From the NCBI GenBank assembly GCA_945947035.1, contig CAMEXD010000004.1, forward strand, positions 2,362-66,361: a DNA stretch of 64,000 nt, in the 5' to 3' direction. The DNA is from an uncultured Mycoplasma sp. (GTDB lineage Bacteria; Bacillota_I; Bacilli_A; RF39; UBA660). Within the stretch, counting starts at the first letter, position 1. Each line of letters starts with the position of its first letter. The notes beneath the pieces are model-generated. The model was not told the DNA's origin. It did no database searches and saw nothing but the letters and a program-made list of their open reading frames with translations. Shown here piece after piece: positions 3,479-47,573 of the stretch. The position numbers and the translations under genes were made by a program.

Positions 3479-5413
3479 ATGGGGGGGCAAGTTAAAAAAC
3501 TATCATTAATAATAGGAATAGTAGGATTATTAATATTAGTAATAGGAATAACGTTTGCCCTATATAATATAGACTTAAAAGGATTAAGAGAACATTTTAT
3601 AACAACAAATAAATTAACATTTTCTTATAAAGAACCAATCGAAAGTCTAAATTTAATATCGTATAATAGTTTGACAGACGAAGAAGGAAAAAAACAAAAT
3701 ACTTATTATGAATTTACAGTAAAAGGAACAAGTGAAGCACCTGAAGTAATAGACTATGTAATTTATTTACAAAAAGAAGAAGCAGAAAGAACTTTTAATG
3801 AAAGCGATTTGAAAGTATATTTAACAAAAGTGGAAAATGATGTTGAAACAGAAGTAGTTTCTCCAACCTTACTAAGTAAATTTTTAGAATATAATAATAT
3901 AAGTGATACTAAAGCATTATATGGAAGTAGTATGAATCTAACAGGGAATTTAGATATAACAGATACATATAGATTAAGAATCTGGTTAAAAGAAGATTTT
4001 GATTTTAATAGTTTAAAAAGTTCAACAACAACAAATGGAGAACAAAATATAAAAATAGAACAATACGAATATAAATTTAAAGTAAATGTAGCAACAGGAT
4101 TTATGCCAGAGATAAAATGTGATTCAATGTTAGTAGATAATAGTGGCGCAAATGCACCAGAATTACCGACAAATGCTATAGCAGTATGTTATAATAGTGC
4201 AAATGATGTCTGGTTAAAAGCAGATACAACTAATACAAATAGCAATTATCAATGGTATTCATATAGTGGAAAAACATGGGCCAATGCCGTAACAGTAACA
4301 GAAGCAAATAGAGAAGAATATTTAAATGCAGAAGTAGGAACAGAAATCAGTATGGATGATATAAATACAATGTGGGTGTGGATACCAAGGTTTACAGCTA
4401 CTGGTGATACAGCAAATTATAATGGAGGAACAATAGATAATCCTGGAGCATTTGATATAACATTTGTAAGTAAAACAACAACAGCACATGATGCATTCAC
4501 TTTTGGCACAGATGAATTAAACGGCTTTTGGGTAGGTAAATTTGAAACAGGAATTATTTCATCTGTAACCCTAGAATGTGATAATACTCTTGGAACATGT
4601 GATATATCGAATTTTTTAATAAAACCTGATGTAGGATCCTTTAGTATTGATAGTATAGAAGGTAGTAATAACAGTTTTAGTTTAGCTAATACTTTCTATT
4701 TCGGAAGGAGTATAGGAAAAAGTGGCAATCCATATGGGTTTGATAATACAAAAGATATAACACTAGATACCCATACTATAAAAAACAATGAATGTAGCGC
4801 AGTAGCATATTTAACTCAAAGTATCTATGGCAGATGTACGTCAAGTACAAATTGCACAGAAGTATATTTCAATAATAGTACTGGTTATACAGGTCGAAGT
4901 GGAGGAAATGTCGGGGGTTCAACACCAATAAATGAAACATATCCAGATCAAACATCAACAGATCAATATAATGCCTATGGATTTTACACATATGATGGAT
5001 ATTTATTAGAATATAATACTAATAATAAAACAACAACAAAGGATATGAGTAAAGTAGCATCAACAACCGGAAATATCTATGGTGTATATGATATGAGTGG
5101 TGGACGTTTTGAAACGGTCATGGGAATTTATGATGACACTACTGAATATGGCTTCAATATTAATGATGTAACTAATATTGATGCCAAATACTATAATAGT
5201 TATGATAGTAGTACAAATTATACCAATGCTAACTTACAACATGCTTTAGTAGAGACCAAAGGATGGTATGGAGACGGCGGTACTATGCCAAATCCTTATT
5301 CGCCGTATATTGCAAGAGGTGGAAGTTATGCTGAATCAGCTTCAAGTTCTGGTATTTTTTATTTCTATAGTTCTAGTCGTAGATATAATCCTCGTATCGT
5401 TTTGGTTAAATAA
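3479..5413 (+). CDS. membrane-anchored secreted protein with a C-terminal FGE-sulfatase (SUMF1/DUF323-like) domain, apparently phase-variable (see G7 tract)
   Basis: N-terminal signal anchor LSLIIGIVGLLILVIGITFALY. The C-terminal part carries FWVGKFETG, YGVYDMSGGRFETVMG and ARGGSYAESA, matching the conserved blocks of formylglycine-generating-enzyme-like domains. The ATG at 3479 lacks an RBS, and a strongly RBS-served ATG at 3460 is out of frame because of a G7 tract. Confidence 0.6.
   Translation: MGGQVKKLSLIIGIVGLLILVIGITFALYNIDLKGLREHFITTNKLTFSYKEPIESLNLISYNSLTDEEGKKQNTYYEFTVKGTSEAPEVIDYVIYLQKEEAERTFNESDLKVYLTKVENDVETEVVSPTLLSKFLEYNNISDTKALYGSSMNLTGNLDITDTYRLRIWLKEDFDFNSLKSSTTTNGEQNIKIEQYEYKFKVNVATGFMPEIKCDSMLVDNSGANAPELPTNAIAVCYNSANDVWLKADTTNTNSNYQWYSYSGKTWANAVTVTEANREEYLNAEVGTEISMDDINTMWVWIPRFTATGDTANYNGGTIDNPGAFDITFVSKTTTAHDAFTFGTDELNGFWVGKFETGIISSVTLECDNTLGTCDISNFLIKPDVGSFSIDSIEGSNNSFSLANTFYFGRSIGKSGNPYGFDNTKDITLDTHTIKNNECSAVAYLTQSIYGRCTSSTNCTEVYFNNSTGYTGRSGGNVGGSTPINETYPDQTSTDQYNAYGFYTYDGYLLEYNTNNKTTTKDMSKVASTTGNIYGVYDMSGGRFETVMGIYDDTTEYGFNINDVTNIDAKYYNSYDSSTNYTNANLQHALVETKGWYGDGGTMPNPYSPYIARGGSYAESASSSGIFYFYSSSRRYNPRIVLVK
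3481..3487 (+). repeat. homopolymeric G7 tract in the translation-initiation region of the 3479..5413 gene (candidate slipped-strand phase-variation switch)
   Basis: GGGGGGG at 3481-3487 in a roughly 27% GC genome. RBS AAAGGAGTG (3442-3450) serves the ATG at 3460, which reads MQAKIRHGGAS-stop with G7. With G6 or G9 it reads straight into the 644-aa ORF. Confidence 0.6.
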
Positions 5414-41691: not shown

Positions 41692-43764
41692 ATGCATAAA
41701 ATAGCAGATTTTATTGTAAAAAATAAAAAAATAATTCTGATTCTAAATTTGCTTTTATTAATACCAGCTATTATAGGTTTTAGTTTAACAAAAACAAATT
41801 ATGATATTTTAGTATATTTACCTAGTGATATTGAAACACTAAAAGGTCAAAATATATTAAAAGATGATTTCAAAATGGGTGCATTTTCTGTTTCTTTAGT
41901 AGATAATGATATAAGTGATAAAGAATTAATTACTTTGGAAAACAAAATTAGAGAGATAGATTGTGTTAATGATGTAGTTAGCATTAATGACATCACAGGA
42001 ACAACTATTCCTTTAGAGATGTTACCAAAGAAATTCGTTGATCATGTATCAACTGATGATTCTAAATTATTACTTATAACATTTTCAACTGGTACAAGTG
42101 ATGAAGAAACAACTGATGCAGTAAAAGAGATAGAGGAATTATCTAGTAGTATTAAAGTTGGTGGTATGAGTGCTATGTCTTTGGATATGAGAAGGTTAGT
42201 TGAAAGTCAAACTTTTACTTATGTGTTATTGGCAGTTGTATGTTGTCTAATTATACTAATGATATCTCTTGATTCATACATTGTTCCATTAATATTGTTA
42301 GGAAATATTGGAGTATCAATTCTATTTAATATGGGAACTAACATAATGTTTGGGGAAATATCTTATATCACCAAAGCAATTGCAGCTGTATTACAACTTG
42401 GAGTAACTACTGATTTTTCAATATTCCTATATCATAAATACGAAGCTGCTAAAAAGACTAAAAAAACAAATGATGAAGCCATGAGTGAAGCAATTAGTGA
42501 AACTATGACATCTGTAATTGGATCTTCACTTACAACTATTGCTGGTTTCTTAGCACTTTGTAGTATGAAGTTTGGTTTAGGAAAAGACATAGGTTTAGTA
42601 ATGGCTAAAGGAGTAGTATTTGGTGTTTTGACAGTATTAACTTTTTATCCAGCATTATTGTTAATGTCTGATAAATTAATTCAAAAAACAAAACATAAGA
42701 CATTGATTCCAAAGTTTAAATTCATTAAACCAATTGTTACAAAAGGATATAAATGGATATTTATAGTTTTCTTAATTTTATTAGTACCTGCATATTTATC
42801 TCAAAAAAATACAAATGTTTATTATAAATTAGATACAAGTATTCCAGAAGATTATAATTATTCAATTGTCAGCAAAAAATTAAAAGAAGATTATGGTTTA
42901 ATATCACAATCTATGATCCTAGTTAATAAGGATATGGATAGTAGTGATATGAATAATATGATAGATGAAATTAATGATATAGATGGTATTGATAGTGTTT
43001 TATCATCTGATGTATTAGTCAAATATGGAATATCAATTAATATTCTTCCATCTAAAATAAGAAACATTTTAGAAACTGACAATTATAAACTTATTCTTGT
43101 TAACTCAAATTATGAAATAGCAAGTGATGAAATAAATGAGCAGATAAAATATTTAAATACAATAATAAAAAAATACGATAAAAATGCAATACTTGCTGGA
43201 GAAGGACCATTAATGAATGATTTGGTTGAAATAACAGCAATAGACTTTAGAAATGTAAATTATGTTTCAATAGGAGTTATATTCTTAATTATGTTCTTCG
43301 TATTAAGATCAATTAGTTTACCAGCATTTCTTGTTTTATCAGTAGAGTTTGCAATATTTATAAATATGGGTGTTCCATATTGGCATGGCACTAGTATTCC
43401 GTTTGTTTCATCTATTGTAATTGGAACTATACAACTTGGTGCAACAATTGATTATGCAATTTTACTAACAACAAAATATTTGGAAGAAAGAAAAAATGGA
43501 AAAGATAAGAAAACTGCAATGGAAGAATCTTTAGATTCGTCAGTATCATCAATTTTTGTTAGTGCAATGTGTTTCTTCGGAGCAACTTTTGGAGTATATG
43601 TTGTTTCAAAAATTGATATGATTGGATCACTATGTTTATTGATGGCAAGAGGTGCTATTATAAGCATGCTTGTAGTTATGTTTATTGTACCTAGTGTGTT
43701 ATTATTATTTGATAAATTAATAACTAAAACAACATTGGGGTTTAAGAAAGGAAAGATAGTATGA
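41692..43764 (+). CDS. MMPL/RND-superfamily transporter (YdfJ/YdgH-like)
   Basis: Two 6-TM bundles separated by large extracytoplasmic loops. MMPL-like organisation. Confidence 0.7.
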   Translation: MHKIADFIVKNKKIILILNLLLLIPAIIGFSLTKTNYDILVYLPSDIETLKGQNILKDDFKMGAFSVSLVDNDISDKELITLENKIREIDCVNDVVSINDITGTTIPLEMLPKKFVDHVSTDDSKLLLITFSTGTSDEETTDAVKEIEELSSSIKVGGMSAMSLDMRRLVESQTFTYVLLAVVCCLIILMISLDSYIVPLILLGNIGVSILFNMGTNIMFGEISYITKAIAAVLQLGVTTDFSIFLYHKYEAAKKTKKTNDEAMSEAISETMTSVIGSSLTTIAGFLALCSMKFGLGKDIGLVMAKGVVFGVLTVLTFYPALLLMSDKLIQKTKHKTLIPKFKFIKPIVTKGYKWIFIVFLILLVPAYLSQKNTNVYYKLDTSIPEDYNYSIVSKKLKEDYGLISQSMILVNKDMDSSDMNNMIDEINDIDGIDSVLSSDVLVKYGISINILPSKIRNILETDNYKLILVNSNYEIASDEINEQIKYLNTIIKKYDKNAILAGEGPLMNDLVEITAIDFRNVNYVSIGVIFLIMFFVLRSISLPAFLVLSVEFAIFINMGVPYWHGTSIPFVSSIVIGTIQLGATIDYAILLTTKYLEERKNGKDKKTAMEESLDSSVSSIFVSAMCFFGATFGVYVVSKIDMIGSLCLLMARGAIISMLVVMFIVPSVLLLFDKLITKTTLGFKKGKIV

Positions 43765-45959
43765 AAAAGATATTTAAAAAATTATTAGCTTATACTTTAA
43801 TTCTTGGTGAATTATTTCAAACAACAGGAGTTTATGCACTCACAAAAGAAGAAACAGTATATGCAAAATTAAATGAAACAGGAGAATTAAAAAGTGCTTC
43901 TGTTACTGAACACTTATATAATTATAGTGGAAAGACAATTAGTGATAAAACTAGTTTAGATAGTATTAAAAATATTAACGGAAATGAAACATTTAAACAA
44001 AATGATAATAATCTTGTTTGGGAAGCTAATGGTAGTGATATTTATTATCAAGGTACATATGCAAAAAATTTACCAATAAGCCTTGATGTTAAATATTATT
44101 TAAATGGTGAAGAAAAAAATGTAAATAATATTTTAGGTAAAGATGGAAAGATTAAAATAGTTTTAACTTATAAAAATAATTCATATAAAAATATGAATAT
44201 TAATGGTAGAACAGAAAAAATATATGTTCCGTATGCCATAATTACAACATCTATATTAAATAATACTGATAATAAAAATATTAAGGTTACCAATGGTAAA
44301 ATTATTGATAATGGTGTAAATTCTGTTATAATGGCAATATCTTCACCTGGATTATATGAGTCTTTAAAAATAGATGATATAAAAGATATAAATAAAGTTG
44401 AAATAACTTATGATACCAGTGATTTTGAATTAAATTCTATTTATTCTGTTGCAACAACAAGTCTATTTGATGATAACAATCTTGATATGTTTGGTGAAAT
44501 TAATAATCTATATAAAAGCATAAATTTATTACAAAGTAATATGGATACAATTGTGGATGCATCAAAAAAATTAAGTGATGGATCTAGTCAAATGAATGCT
44601 GGTATTACAGAGTTAAATAGTAGAATACAAGAATTAACACAAAAATATAAGTATTATAGAAATCAAGATCAAAATACCCTAAAAGAAGAACTTATAAAGA
44701 TTATTAAGCAAAATATTAATACAATCACACCTGCATTAGAAGAAGAAATAACTGCTGAAACAAGTAAAATAATAAAAGAAAATAAAAGCGAATTAGAAAA
44801 TGCAATTATTACTTATACTAAAAAGAATACTATGTCAGTAGTAGATGAAGAAGTAAATAAAATAGTTAATAATTTAGATATAAATAGTTTAATGGAAAAA
44901 GTTATTAATAGTAATTTATACAATTTACTAATAAATGATTCAGAGATTGCAGAATTAACAAAAGCACTTAAAGAAGATATTAATAAAGAATTAAAGAATA
45001 TTATAGTTAATGAATTTAATAATATAGAAAGTAGCATAAATAACAATATGTCACAAAGCGAAAAAGAAAAATATATAAGTGATATAGCAGAAAAATATGA
45101 TGTAACTTATGAACAAGCATTAGGAATAGTTGGAGAAGTTCAAACAGATACTTTAAATCAAGTAAAAAAGAACATCAGTGAAGCCAATATTCCAGAAAAA
45201 ATTATTAATTCTCTAAATGATAAAAATTATGTATTAAATTTAGTTAATGAATATATAAATAAATTAAATAGTAAATTAAATGAATCAATTAACAAAGATA
45301 CAACTGTTAATGAATATTCTAAAGAATTAAAAGAAAAAATATTATCAGCACTAAATAAAGATTTAGAAAATGAAAGTATGTATTTAAATACTAATGTTAA
45401 AGAATATATTTCAAGTTTAGTTGATAAAATAATTGATAATACTGCAAAAGATTTATCAAGCAAATATACTGAAGAATACACAAATAAAGTTGTTAAAAAT
45501 GTCATTGACAAGGAATTTAGTGAAGAAAATGTTGATTCAAAACTAAGAGAATTATTAAATATTTATGAAGATGATATAAATAAAAAGGTAACAGTTTTAG
45601 ATGATACCATAAATACATTATCAGATTCTTTAAATATGTTAAATGATGGATCAAAACAAATTTCAACAGGTATGAGTGCATTATCATCAGGACTTGAAAA
45701 ATACAATAAAGAAGGAATAAATAAAATTAATAATCTAGTTAATGGAGATGTTAAAACTCTTCAAAAAAGATTAGATGCACTTATTCAATTAAGTAATAAT
45801 AATCAAACAATAGACACTCTTCCTAATAGTGCTAATGGTAATTCAAAAATTATATTTATGATTGATTCATTATCCAAGCCATCCGAAACTATTGTTGAAA
45901 CTAGCAAAGAAGAACAAAAAAGTTCTCTCTGGGATAAAATAAAAGGACTGTTTAATTAA
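43761..45959 (+). CDS. secreted protein with YhgE/Pip-like repeats and long coiled coils
   Basis: Signal peptide. Repeated DGS.Q...G...L..G heptad-like units (SDGSSQMNAGITEL, NDGSKQISTGMSAL). Translationally coupled to the MMPL gene. Confidence 0.45.
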   Translation: MKKIFKKLLAYTLILGELFQTTGVYALTKEETVYAKLNETGELKSASVTEHLYNYSGKTISDKTSLDSIKNINGNETFKQNDNNLVWEANGSDIYYQGTYAKNLPISLDVKYYLNGEEKNVNNILGKDGKIKIVLTYKNNSYKNMNINGRTEKIYVPYAIITTSILNNTDNKNIKVTNGKIIDNGVNSVIMAISSPGLYESLKIDDIKDINKVEITYDTSDFELNSIYSVATTSLFDDNNLDMFGEINNLYKSINLLQSNMDTIVDASKKLSDGSSQMNAGITELNSRIQELTQKYKYYRNQDQNTLKEELIKIIKQNINTITPALEEEITAETSKIIKENKSELENAIITYTKKNTMSVVDEEVNKIVNNLDINSLMEKVINSNLYNLLINDSEIAELTKALKEDINKELKNIIVNEFNNIESSINNNMSQSEKEKYISDIAEKYDVTYEQALGIVGEVQTDTLNQVKKNISEANIPEKIINSLNDKNYVLNLVNEYINKLNSKLNESINKDTTVNEYSKELKEKILSALNKDLENESMYLNTNVKEYISSLVDKIIDNTAKDLSSKYTEEYTNKVVKNVIDKEFSEENVDSKLRELLNIYEDDINKKVTVLDDTINTLSDSLNMLNDGSKQISTGMSALSSGLEKYNKEGINKINNLVNGDVKTLQKRLDALIQLSNNNQTIDTLPNSANGNSKIIFMIDSLSKPSETIVETSKEEQKSSLWDKIKGLFN

Positions 45960-45997: not shown

Positions 45998-46020
45998 AAT
46001 AATTTTTAATAATTTAATAA
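45992..46020. repeat. intergenic motif copy: TTTTTTAATAATTTTTAATAATTTAATAA
   Basis: Exact match to 24461 over 28 nt. Directly follows the terminator at 45968. Confidence 0.6.
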
Positions 46021-46410
46021 AAAAATAATAAATCGAATTTTGTATATTTAAGCCATGGTAGTTTGATGTAAGAAACAGGCAATGCCATGGCTATTAATAT
46101 GAAAGGATGTTGAAGTAGTAATAAAAAAATAGAATTTTATAGTTGAGTAGTACCTTCTATTTTTTAATAATTGTATTATTTAGCTTAAGATTTCATAGAT
46201 TTGCAGTATTTGTCTATGATGAATTAAATTGACATTGCTCATAAAGAATGATTTATTTATGAGTAAAAAATACTGCAGACTTAAAATATATTTAATAATA
46301 TTAGTCAATAATTTTTCAGGGACAAGAATTTGTATTTACAGCGATACGAGTTCTTGTTCCTTTTTTTATTTTTCGAGAAATATTGTAAAAAAATGTAGAT
46401 CACCTCCTTT

Positions 46411-46445
46411 TATCAATTTTGAATTTAAAAGTTTGAAATTGATAG
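46411..46445 (+). promoter_or_regulatory. inverted repeat TATCAATTT-N16-AAATTGATA immediately upstream of the RBS of the sigma-like gene
   Basis: 9-bp perfect arms, ends 1 nt before GGAGGA RBS. Confidence 0.3.
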
Positions 46446-46455
46446 GAGGATATAT

Positions 46456-46926
46456 ATGAGTGATAGTCCTAAAAGGAGGAAATATTTTGATAATCCTTAT
46501 GAAATTAGAATTATTAATGAGAAGTATTTTATCTGCTTTAAGGATAATAAAAATAAAATGCAAGAAATAGAAGTTAGTTCAAAAATATATAAGATATTTG
46601 ATGATTCTGAACTACATGATTTATCAGAATTAAATGAATATGATAGACATATAGAACATTCTGAAATTTTTGATATATCACTTTATCATAGAAGTAATGA
46701 AGAAATGTATTCTTTAGAAAAAGAGGTTGAGGATAAGATTCTTAATGAAGAATTAAGAGATTGTATTAGAACACTACCAGATGTTCAAAGAAGAAGGATT
46801 ATTAAATATTATTTTGATGATAAAAATGAATATGAAATAGCTGAAGAAGAAGGAACAACTCATCAAGCAGTAAATAAATCTTTAAAGCAAGCTCGAGAAA
46901 AATTGAGACAAATTTTAAAAAAATAG
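46456..46926 (+). CDS. sigma-70 region-4 (HTH) domain regulator, ICE-associated
   Basis: C-terminus LRDCIRTLPDVQRRRIIKYYFDDKNEYEIAEEEGTTHQAVNKSLKQAREKLR matches sigma-70 region 4. N-terminal part lacks region 2. Confidence 0.55.
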   Translation: MSDSPKRRKYFDNPYEIRIINEKYFICFKDNKNKMQEIEVSSKIYKIFDDSELHDLSELNEYDRHIEHSEIFDISLYHRSNEEMYSLEKEVEDKILNEELRDCIRTLPDVQRRRIIKYYFDDKNEYEIAEEEGTTHQAVNKSLKQAREKLRQILKK

Positions 46927-46960
46927 AAATTTAGGGTTGCTATTTTGCTTATGAGTGAGG

Positions 46961-47010
46961 AAACAAGTGAGAGGGTTAATTATTTAATTTTTCTCACTTG
47001 TTTATTTTCA
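46961..47010 (+). terminator. terminator: 12-bp stem AAACAAGTGAGA/TCTCACTTGTTT with T-rich tail
   Basis: Perfect 12-bp inverted repeat 46961-46972/46992-47003, then TTTATTTTC. Confidence 0.55.
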
Positions 47011-47149
47011 AGTTTGTTCTTTGACAATTTTATATTCATTCATTAAATACATTCCTATTATTAATAGCACTGTAATTGGTTCGCTTGCGATTAAAACCAG
47101 ATTATAAAAATAGATAGCAACTATTTTGCGATGACGAATAATAGGTATA

Positions 47150-47300
47150 ATGATACTTCTGTCCAGCCACAACCTCAAGTAATGGGGGCAGTTCTGTGAG
47201 AACCACAGAGAGGTGAGATGCCTATGGAACTAATTAGCTATTAGTCATTTAATGATTTCCAGCCGAGGGGTTCGGGGAAAAATATCGGTGAAGTAAAAAA
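47150..47300 (+). ncRNA. GC-rich structured 5' leader or small RNA candidate upstream of ORF 47319
   Basis: Local GC around 45% against a roughly 25% background. Hairpin TCTGTG-AGAAC-CACAGA nested in CCTC...GAGG, CTAAT-TAGCT-ATTAG, CCGA-GGGGT-TCGG. Duplicated CCAGCC boxes at 47163 and 47259. Weak TTGCGA/TATAAT promoter-like hexamers upstream. Confidence 0.25.
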
Positions 47301-47318
47301 TATAAATAAAAGGAAAAG

Positions 47319-47534
47319 GTGATTCAAATGAAAAAATATGATGTGAAAATTAAGGTGGTAAAGGAACACGATATAATAGTTAGTGCAACTTGTAGAGAAG
47401 AAGCAATTAGTAAGGTAGATGAATTAGTTGCTGGTTCAGGAATTCAATATTTAGATATTCCTAATTTTACAAAGCATTATATTATTATAGATATTGATAA
47501 GAAACCTATATTCAAAAGAAAGCATCATAGATGA
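47319..47534 (+). CDS. small hypothetical protein
   Basis: RBS AAAGGTGATTCAAATG. 71 aa basic C-terminus. Confidence 0.3.
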   Translation: MIQMKKYDVKIKVVKEHDIIVSATCREEAISKVDELVAGSGIQYLDIPNFTKHYIIIDIDKKPIFKRKHHR

Positions 47535-47573
47535 TTTGTGTTTTTGAAAAAATGATGGTAGCATCAAAGTGAG

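Follow-up and report, generated by a model that had tools for sequence, protein, structure and literature searches.

A pemK/canT-family RNA heads the transfer genes of an integrative and conjugative element and is probably a cis-acting antiterminator

A structured RNA was analysed in a 64,000-nt stretch of DNA from an uncultured Mycoplasma sp. (GenBank assembly GCA_945947035.1, contig CAMEXD010000004.1, positions 2,362 to 66,361 of the forward strand), referred to here as the window. The element lies on the + strand at 47106-47292, downstream of a gene for a sigma-like protein and directly ahead of the transfer genes of an integrative and conjugative element (ICE). It is a genuine conserved structured RNA and a further member of the known pemK/canT family. 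It is probably a cis-acting processive antiterminator RNA of the type described for canT of Tn916, placed at the head of the transfer operon. Antitermination is the activity that we infer, by analogy with Tn916, to be the most likely one for the window copy.

In an Rfam 15 scan of the 64-kb window, the pemK RNA (RF02913) is the sole match above its gathering score, at 47147-47227 on the + strand. With 63.2 bits (E = 5e-9 for the entire window), the match lies well above the gathering score of 34.8, and it takes in positions 1-61 of the 61-position model. The model comprises an unpaired 5´ AUAAUGAUACUUC and three stems (P1-P3) under one closing U-A pair, with the conserved loops AGAAC and GGUGAnAUnCC. 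In the model alignment, the window copy has the 5´ AUAAUGAUACUUC, the three stems, the single closing pair and both loops. The pemK loci and the window element also share a host range, namely Bacillota mobile elements, whereas the window copy has no pemK toxin gene downstream. Rfam classes pemK as 'Cis-reg'; the motif goes back to Weinberg et al. 2017 (PMC5737381), where its description is confined to the supplement. A permissive Rfam rescan added just the dinG RNA (RF03082) at the same site, with 29.8 bits against its gathering score of 46.9. The dinG RNA has a 5´ AAUGAUACUUC and the first two hairpins in common with the window element, but its third hairpin fits poorly and the score lies below gathering, so the element is not assigned to that family.

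The original prediction, made from the sequence of the window, had described an unexplained structured RNA candidate that matched no known riboswitch consensus by eye, and had named an Rfam hit to a known family as the ground for giving up that view. The Infernal/Rfam search returns such a hit, well above the gathering score, so the claim of novelty falls. The broader claim, that the leader of the transfer genes contains a structured RNA, was borne out: the fold is conserved and covaries. Among the roles proposed at that stage, a conjugation-control RNA was the best. An antisense target gained no support, and a generic protein-binding leader gained no specific support; canT, the nearest characterised relative, acts without other genes of its element (PMC11658703).

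About 100 relatives define a conserved unit of about 187 nt (47106-47292), which far exceeds the Rfam model: compared with the 61 model positions, the unit of about 187-191 nt has four additional structural features. The relatives were found with a pattern scan (ATAATGATACT, a gap of 18-48 nt, TGAGAACCA) that yielded at least 120 genome loci and 8 viral contigs (IMG/VR); since selection was by exact pattern, the invariance of these two blocks is by construction. All locus counts given below (38, 24, 86 and others) refer to relatives among the matches listed, of which about 100 are genuine, nearly all from Clostridia, Bacilli and related metagenome-assembled genomes (MAGs). Neither a megablast search with window positions 46000-54000 nor a blastn search with the element gave a match against plasmids.

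The fold is conserved in two alignments. When 36 sequences are aligned by MAFFT on sequence alone, pairing is seen in 87% of cells, compared with 69.5% after shuffling and at most 51.5% with slid partners. Pairing reaches 100% in P1, 96.8% in P2, 100% in P3 and 98.9% in a further hairpin, P4, with compensatory changes in P1-P3. Plain MAFFT shifts the upstream hairpin and P6 by one column between subfamilies, and the alignment was therefore rebuilt with a 191-position covariance model derived from the 36 sequences, the window copy being in the seed. This extended model has a single match in the window, end to end at 47106-47292, with 184 bits (the score of a seed member). Loci outside the seed score 150-190 bits and Tn916 scores 78.6 bits, and the model turns down 22 chance pattern matches as well as the pLS20 and pCF10 backbones. 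The model-fitted alignment comprises 95 distinct sequences; 95% of its cells are paired (69% shuffled, at most 50% slid), and 40 of the 44 pairs vary on both sides. The full length of the element is 184-199 nt in nearly all subfamilies. At fixed helix positions of P1-P3, 51 G-U pairs were observed against 10 A-C combinations. This excess indicates that the fold is selected on the sense strand and excludes a fold of the template strand.

The element is made up as follows.
47108-47126, + strand: upstream hairpin Pm1 (AAATAG, loop ATAGCAA, CTATTT)
47128-47135, + strand: conserved box 1, GCGATGAC (= GCGAUGAC); GCnAnnA in 79 of 80 parsed sequences
47147-47227, + strand: pemK core (RF02913, 63.2 bits), the 5´ single strand AUAAUGAUACUUC followed by P1-P3
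47159-47191, + strand: stem P1 of the core
47192-47210, + strand: stem P2 of the core (loop AGAAC)
47211-47223, + strand: stem P3 of the core; the closing pair of the three stems is U47158-A47224
47229-47245, + strand: hairpin P4 (ACTAAT, loop TAGCT, ATTAGT)
47246-47260, + strand: conserved box 2, CATTTAATGATTTCC (box CAUUUAAUGAUUUCC); family consensus CGUUUGAUGAYUUCCC
47258-47289, + strand: 3´ pseudoknot of the H type, formed by P5 and P6
47258-60 with 47267-69, + strand: P5, UCC with GGG; 84.6% paired; variants CCG/CGG, GCC/GGC and CGCCC/GGGCG
47262-66 with 47285-89, + strand: P6, GCCGA with UCGGU; 91.6% paired; 5 of 5 pairs vary on both sides

The hairpins that flank the core covary strongly. 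Pm1 is 96.9% paired, all six of its pairs vary on both sides, and 38 distinct stems occur; P4 is 96.7% paired in the model-fitted alignment, again with variation on both sides in six of six pairs. P6 has more than 20 distinct arm sequences, and its arms bracket GGGGUUCGGGGAAAAAUA. In box 1, G24, C25, A27 and A30 are invariant in alignment A2, and no pairing partner for this box was found in the alignments of the relatives. The Pm1 loop is complementary to the P4 loop, and the contact in the window is UAGC 47115-47118 with GCUA 47237-47240. Watson-Crick complementarity of the two loops averages 4.04, compared with 2.69 for mismatched partners, and none of 5000 permutations reaches it. The loop columns are unpaired in the model, so the alignment could not favour this pairing. 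In the model-fitted alignment, the loop-loop helix is 87% paired, and one of its pairs is AU in 24 sequences, UA in 22 and GC in 21. The loops co-vary as GGCA/UGCC, UUGCU/AGCAA, CAGCU/AGCUG, UAGUU/AACUA and UUGUU/AACAA, and as UAGCA/UGCUA in Tn916.

Two further pairings were rejected. An outer closing helix between the linker before ATAAT and the sequence past P3 is not conserved, and its complementarity is only sporadic (GCACAG/CTGTGC in some subfamilies, TAATAG/CTATTA in the window). A pairing between box 1 and box 2 changes its register from one subfamily to another. Three conserved single-stranded boxes contain AUGA: GCGAUGAC at 47128-47135, AUAAUGAUAC at 47147-47156 and UUUAAUGAU at 47250-47258, the last of which reads UUGAUGA or CUGAAAU in relatives. 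These boxes resemble the UGAUGA and CUGA of C/D boxes or kink-turns; no partner was found for any of the three.

The GC-rich island in an AT-rich background reported in the original prediction was confirmed (41-44% GC compared with about 25%): the GC content is 0.44 at 47150-47249 and 0.41 at 47200-47299, and 0.18-0.30 in the flanks on both sides. As a single sequence, 47120-47320 is not exceptionally stable (RNA fold z-score -0.8; DNA fold z-score -2.8 for the same interval), and the conserved nested fold has -20.7 kcal/mol compared with -42.6 kcal/mol for the minimum free energy (MFE) structure. On these values, the evidence for structure is covariation and not energy, and the covariation analysis that had been proposed finds the fold conserved and covarying in relatives. 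Two of the hairpins noticed at first belong to this fold: TCTGTG-AGAAC-CACAGA is the family P2, lengthened to UUCUGUG/CACAGAG (47192-47210), and CTAAT-TAGCT-ATTAG is the conserved, covarying P4 (47229-47245). Other elements were read correctly as letters, but their roles have changed. The outer CCTC...GAGG is present but lies outside the conserved fold, with CCTC in the variable P1 loop. The hairpin CCGA-GGGGT-TCGG is also present but is not conserved as a local hairpin, since its arms pair differently in relatives: the arm after UUCCC pairs with an arm located past GGAAAAAUA, which in the window gives GCCGA 47262-47266 with TCGGT 47285-47289. The two CCAGCC boxes exist, but their duplication is coincidental; the first is the conserved P1 internal loop, and the second straddles the P5/P6 junction and is missing from relatives. 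The AUAGGUAU/AUGCCUAU helix of the single-sequence MFE structure is not conserved in relatives and was rejected.

A function for this family is suggested by canT, the region of Tn916 between orf8 and xis that is required for read-through of the terminators T1-T3 into the transfer genes (PMC11658703). Wirachman and Grossman (2024) found that canT alone is sufficient in a reporter, where it acts in cis, in one orientation only and processively, and that it also overcomes foreign terminators and three terminators in tandem (PMC11658703). The reporter was chromosomal, involved no transfer and no added ligand, and used a foreign promoter and separately supplied terminators; in trans, canT neither complements nor interferes (PMC11658703). 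The mutation canT(S3) changes ATA to TGC starting 283 nt past the orf8 stop codon, and its defect is suppressed by deletion of T1; canT(Δ162) removes +229 to +390 (PMC11658703). We scanned a Tn916-type copy (Tn916/Tn925) on pCF10, designated L001, with the pemK model and obtained a match of 55 bits at 3823-3923, between orf8 and xis. Since the stop codon of orf8 ends at 3540, canT(S3) falls at 3823-3825, on positions 1-3 of the pemK model. In the antisense orf5, the S3 triplet coincides in frame with Tyr codon 65, matching the authors' reason for the mutation. canT(Δ162) corresponds to L001 3769-3930 and deletes the entire pemK match. The window has an identical AUAAUGAUACU at 47147-47157, which spans the S3 triplet. 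Because S3 and Δ162 fall on the pemK match, the essential core of canT corresponds to the pemK motif, and the sequence comparison suggests that pemK (2017) and canT (2024) appear to be the same thing. The canT paper mentions neither Rfam nor pemK and gives no comparative structure, and it calls single-sequence folding uninterpretable (PMC11658703). No paper that equates pemK with canT was found in the literature searched, and searches on the 'pemK motif' and on canT follow-ups from 2025 onward returned nothing relevant.

With the extended model, the Pm1-type hairpin, box 1, the core and P4 of canT all align with the window (78.6 bits). Both elements lie downstream of a sigma-like gene and ahead of transfer genes, in Tn916 in the circular form. 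In Tn916, xis-int and the circle junction part canT from its terminators, so that its action is excision-dependent, whereas the window element directly heads the transfer genes. Two other features were observed in L001. A 13-pair helix (UUUUAUGAAAUCC/GGAUUUUAUGAAG) at 3962-4008, just past the part that aligns with the window element, could enclose the ribosome-binding site and start codon of xis. Rfam RF03532 (SQ2397, 'cis-regulator of HTH transcription factor', HTH being helix-turn-helix) matches 2400-2603 with 181.8 bits, cut at the 5´ end of the searched stretch; this match lies just past the start of a divergent HTH regulator gene (2033-2386) and upstream of the sigma-like gene at 2891.

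All genes around the window element are on the + strand. The element is followed by a 71-aa open reading frame (ORF) and by genes for a lipoprotein, a thioester/SpaA adhesin, a sortase, an HTH_36 protein, two single-stranded DNA-binding proteins (SSBs), a DUF3846 protein, a type IV secretion system (T4SS) pilin, a VirB4-like ATPase, an M23 peptidase and a MobL relaxase. This gene order and the common strand indicate that the element heads the transfer module. The features that surround it are as follows.
46456..46926, + strand: gene for a sigma-70 region-4 protein of 156 aa, analogous to orf7 (Pfam Sigma70_r4_2, E = 2e-9)
46956..47010, + strand: hairpin with a U-rich tail, -20.1 kcal/mol; position kept and arms covarying in 24 relatives
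47022..47050, + strand: promoter-like boxes TTGACA, 17 nt, TAAATA, within GTTCTTTGAMAA and AAATACATTCC
47319..47534, + strand: gene that comes first past the element; a product of 68 aa from ATG 47328 is likelier than one of 71 aa from GTG
48156..48173, + strand: terminator-like hairpin (U7, -7.7 kcal/mol) between the genes for the lipoprotein and the adhesin; candidate antitermination target
50984..51011, + strand: terminator-like hairpin at the adhesin-sortase junction, -12.8 kcal/mol; overlaps the listed sortase ORF start at 50957
54044..54067, + strand: terminator-like hairpin between the SSB and T4SS pilin genes, -11.9 kcal/mol

The sigma-like protein shows local similarity to Tn916 Orf7 (E = 2e-6). 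Its homologues end 190-235 nt before the core in 38 loci, and 221 nt before it in the window; in other subfamilies, Sigma70_r4 proteins, or HTH_16 proteins at the position of Tn916 orf8, are located upstream. The order of sigma-like gene, element and transfer genes on one strand is that of Tn916, which argues for a canT-type antiterminator. The approximately 180 nt between the sigma-like gene and Pm1 (46927-47107) are conserved in 24 relatives. The hairpin at 46956-47010 is probably the terminator of the sigma-like gene. The blocks GTTCTTTGAMAA and AAATACATTCC lie 16-18 nt apart and are present in 24 of 24 relatives and in Tn916 (L001 3661-3701); the -10-like box TAAATA is without the usual final T. 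In about half of the relatives, the window not among them, a GNRA hairpin with covarying arms is inserted after CTATTAT, just past the boxes, which implies that transcription must start before about 47062. A further conserved block, AGCACnTTAGTAAGTnCGCTTGnCGAT, occupies 47067-47107. The interval 46927-47107 can thus be read as a terminator, then a putative promoter, then a leader. For Tn916, a weak Pxis is described without coordinates (PMC11658703).

Two other hairpins were observed in this region. A small second hairpin at 46996-47013 (ACTTG-TTTATTTT-CAAGT) overlaps the 3´ arm of the 46956-47010 hairpin, with UUGUUCUUUGA behind it; this alternative pairing recurs in relatives that have the same insertion, and an attenuator-like switch might operate here ahead of the element. 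Just upstream of the sigma-like gene, a terminator-like hairpin at 46318-46361 (19 pairs, -23.7 kcal/mol, U7) divides this gene from an MMPL-family gene and a 732-aa gene at 41692-45959. By analogy with T1 of Tn916, it could be an insulator.

Downstream, homologues of the 71-aa ORF, which has no Pfam match, lie directly 3´ of the element in 6 loci. Other loci have PemK toxins, from which the Rfam name derives, or large serine recombinases, tyrosine integrases, a methylase or an excisionase at this position. By analogy with xis-int in Tn916, we regard these genes as cargo of the ICE end. The layout of the window, in which the element leads straight into adhesin and transfer genes, is in the minority and is found again in L082, L113 and L128.

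In the mechanism that we propose, transcription would begin upstream of the element, probably at the promoter-like boxes 47022-47050 and possibly with read-through from the sigma-like gene. The nascent RNA would fold into the three-way junction, the flanking hairpins would kiss, and the pseudoknot would then form. The folded RNA would act in cis on its own polymerase, which would then ignore intrinsic terminators. Stray transcripts would stop, and the hairpins at 48156, 50984 and 54044 would be crossed only by transcripts from the control region of the element, which would thereby extend into the genes for the adhesin, sortase, SSB, pilin, VirB4-like protein and relaxase. Antitermination, cis action, orientation dependence and processivity are established in Tn916 (PMC11658703). 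For the window copy, the same activity, the start of the transcript and a direct contact with RNA polymerase are predicted.

Several observations weigh against a canT-type antiterminator in the window. The experimental antitermination data are confined to Tn916, which belongs to another subfamily than the window copy. A 291-nt fragment of Tn916 that contains the core is inactive, so that the core is necessary but not sufficient (PMC11658703). Homology does not extend over the whole functional canT fragment (at least 341 nt in Tn916), of which only the 5´ domain and the upstream boxes align; the Tn916 3´ domain fails to align with the window pseudoknot, which leaves half of the element without an experimental counterpart. 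The strong hairpin at 46956-47010 between the sigma-like gene and the element makes the origin of the transcript uncertain. The three terminator candidates of the window are consensus matches only, and among the matches listed sense-strand terminators occur within 250 nt downstream in 14 of 86 loci, compared with 27 of 86 on the antisense strand; a terminator directly downstream is therefore not supported as a general feature. Finally, the relatives were picked by pattern and are mutually related, which inflates the shuffle statistics.

Some of these points would suit a different cis function of the leader, for instance as a stabiliser of the mRNA, as a site of processing or in translational coupling, with antitermination confined to the Tn916 type. 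The 3´ domain is unlike that of Tn916, and the window element abuts a coding gene and does not lie kilobases from a target terminator. However, the mutated core has the same sequence in both elements, the 5´ domain aligns over its whole length, the synteny with the sigma-like gene is shared, and terminator-like hairpins are present in the operon. We consider this explanation unlikely.

A riboswitch-like sensor, in which the fold would bind a small molecule or ion and gate the gene just downstream, is less likely still. The 'Cis-reg' label of pemK and the large conserved fold, with its junction and pseudoknot and its constant position upstream of same-strand genes, are consistent with such a sensor. 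No expression platform was observed, however: 46400-47700 contains no terminator-like site, hence none between the element and the ORF, and the alignments show no conserved pairing to a ribosome-binding site. The downstream genes are mutually unrelated (PemK toxins, serine recombinases, integrases, a methylase, an excisionase, the 71-aa protein). Moreover, canT is active in a heterologous reporter without added ligand and on separately supplied terminators (PMC11658703).

The element could also function as single-stranded DNA (ssDNA) during transfer, serving as single-strand origin or as a Frpo-type ssDNA promoter. Its association with conjugative elements only, a DNA fold z-score (-2.8) better than that of RNA, and the TATAAT at 47146 in the window point in this direction, and the discoverers of the motif noted that such motifs are indistinguishable from ssDNA by sequence alone (PMC5737381). 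On the other side, the Tn916 element works in a chromosomal reporter without transfer and in one orientation between promoter and terminator, the S3 defect is relieved by deletion of T1, and Tn916 carries a separately mapped sso916 (PMC11658703). The fold is that of the sense strand (G-U 51 compared with A-C 10), whereas a Frpo-type promoter folds on the template strand; in addition, the base before ATAAT is unconstrained and no -35 box is found at the right spacing. A sense-strand ssDNA is compatible with the sequence alone, and the Tn916 reporter data argue for RNA. A role as ssDNA is therefore very improbable.

The same TATAAT (47146-47151), together with the conserved neighbouring sigma-like gene, might suggest that the 5´ block is a promoter -10 box, which the sigma-like protein would perhaps recognise, with the hairpins as an ordinary 5´ untranslated region. 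The base before ATAAT is G in 25 sequences, A in 21, T in 23 and C in 11, and the best -35 match at 16-18 nt reaches at most 3 of 6 positions, no better than random offsets; on these grounds, TATAAT was rejected as a -10 box. Furthermore, Pm1 lies upstream of this block and covaries, as does its loop with the downstream P4 loop, which places the start of the RNA further upstream, and canT is active from a foreign promoter (PMC11658703). We regard a promoter at this site as highly unlikely. There is equally little to recommend a trans-acting small RNA (sRNA) or antisense target that controls conjugation or downstream toxin-antitoxin genes, for which the weak dinG sRNA match (29.8 bits, cut-off 46.9) and the PemK toxin genes after the element in many loci might speak, since canT in trans neither complements nor interferes (PMC11658703), no toxin-antitoxin genes follow the window copy, and the element is not set apart as a gene of its own by a promoter on one side and a terminator on the other.

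The proposed antiterminator resembles other systems in function more than in sequence. The conAn system of pLS20-type plasmids consists of the ConAn1 protein (PF17362) and the conAn2 RNA (PMC8191782). There, too, an antiterminator based on RNA acts in cis, and it heads a long conjugation operon of Gram-positive bacteria that has many internal terminators (PMC8191782). However, conAn2 (pLS20, L131 3083-3465) gave no pemK match at E up to 10 and no extended-model match, and the 20 proteins scanned in the neighbourhood of the window element did not include ConAn1; conAn2 and the window element are different RNAs. The pCF10 transfer operon also gave no pemK match at E up to 10. The put RNA of phage HK022 and the EAR RNA of the Bacillus eps operon act in cis and make the polymerase terminator-resistant without a dedicated protein (PMC11658703, PMC8191782). 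They are unrelated to the window element in sequence and occur in other hosts and contexts, and neither gave a match at the window element in the permissive Rfam rescan.

For the window, the consequence is one of ordinary annotation: the leader gains a family name and a probable job. If pemK and canT are indeed the same, canT-type antitermination would not be a Tn916 peculiarity but a widespread control of Gram-positive conjugative elements. Much of the mobile antibiotic resistance in gut Bacillota resides on such elements. The extended fold supplies precise disrupt-and-restore mutations, in the loop-loop contact and in the pseudoknot arms, and offers a way past the uninterpretable folding of canT. 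A broader and more tentative reading, which we hold as possible and do not favour, is that pemK/canT is an RNA of about 190-270 nt (three-way junction, kissing loops, H-type pseudoknot) within a four-part portable cassette that, in very many Bacillota ICEs, would license the transcription of either the transfer genes or the recombination genes at the end of the element. The four parts would be the RNA, an Orf7-like sigma gene, the terminator of that gene and a dedicated conserved promoter. The window would then represent an excision-independent arrangement, a seven-year-old orphan Rfam motif would gain a function, and canT would gain the comparative structure that its discoverers lacked.

Several minor observations concern the relatives. 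One subfamily (L014, L024, L033, L037, L098, L117, L126, L031 and L112) has a short stem 1, with a 40-nt pattern match, and an extra hairpin in the 3´ domain (e.g. CGAAAAC-AGA-GTTTTCG), while its total length is kept at about 190 nt; the covariance model misassigns the extra hairpin as P6. In 27 of 86 loci among the matches listed, the U-tract of a hairpin just past the element lies on the antisense strand (e.g. GGCAAAA-hairpin); this hairpin may shield the element by terminating convergent transcription. Of the eight IMG/VR pattern matches, six (L002-L006, L009) are a phage repeat with the stretch ATAATGATACTGCTTC...TTTGAGAACCA, which is apparently coding; these contigs are without stem complementarity and are rejected by the extended model, and they were set aside as chance matches. 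Typical copies with Bacteroides or Muribaculaceae labels (L014, L100, L111) are located on short MAG contigs assigned to Bacteroidota, for which a binning error is more likely than transfer across phyla. One Oscillospiraceae MAG (MGBC157433) has copies on five contigs (L025, L058, L059, L061, L097), and thus one genome can hold several such elements. In the window, the two SSB genes of the transfer operon (51994-52386 and 53665-54045) are separated by an unannotated 156-aa ORF, a gene for a 138-aa protein whose sole domain is a resolvase N-terminal one, and the DUF3846 gene.

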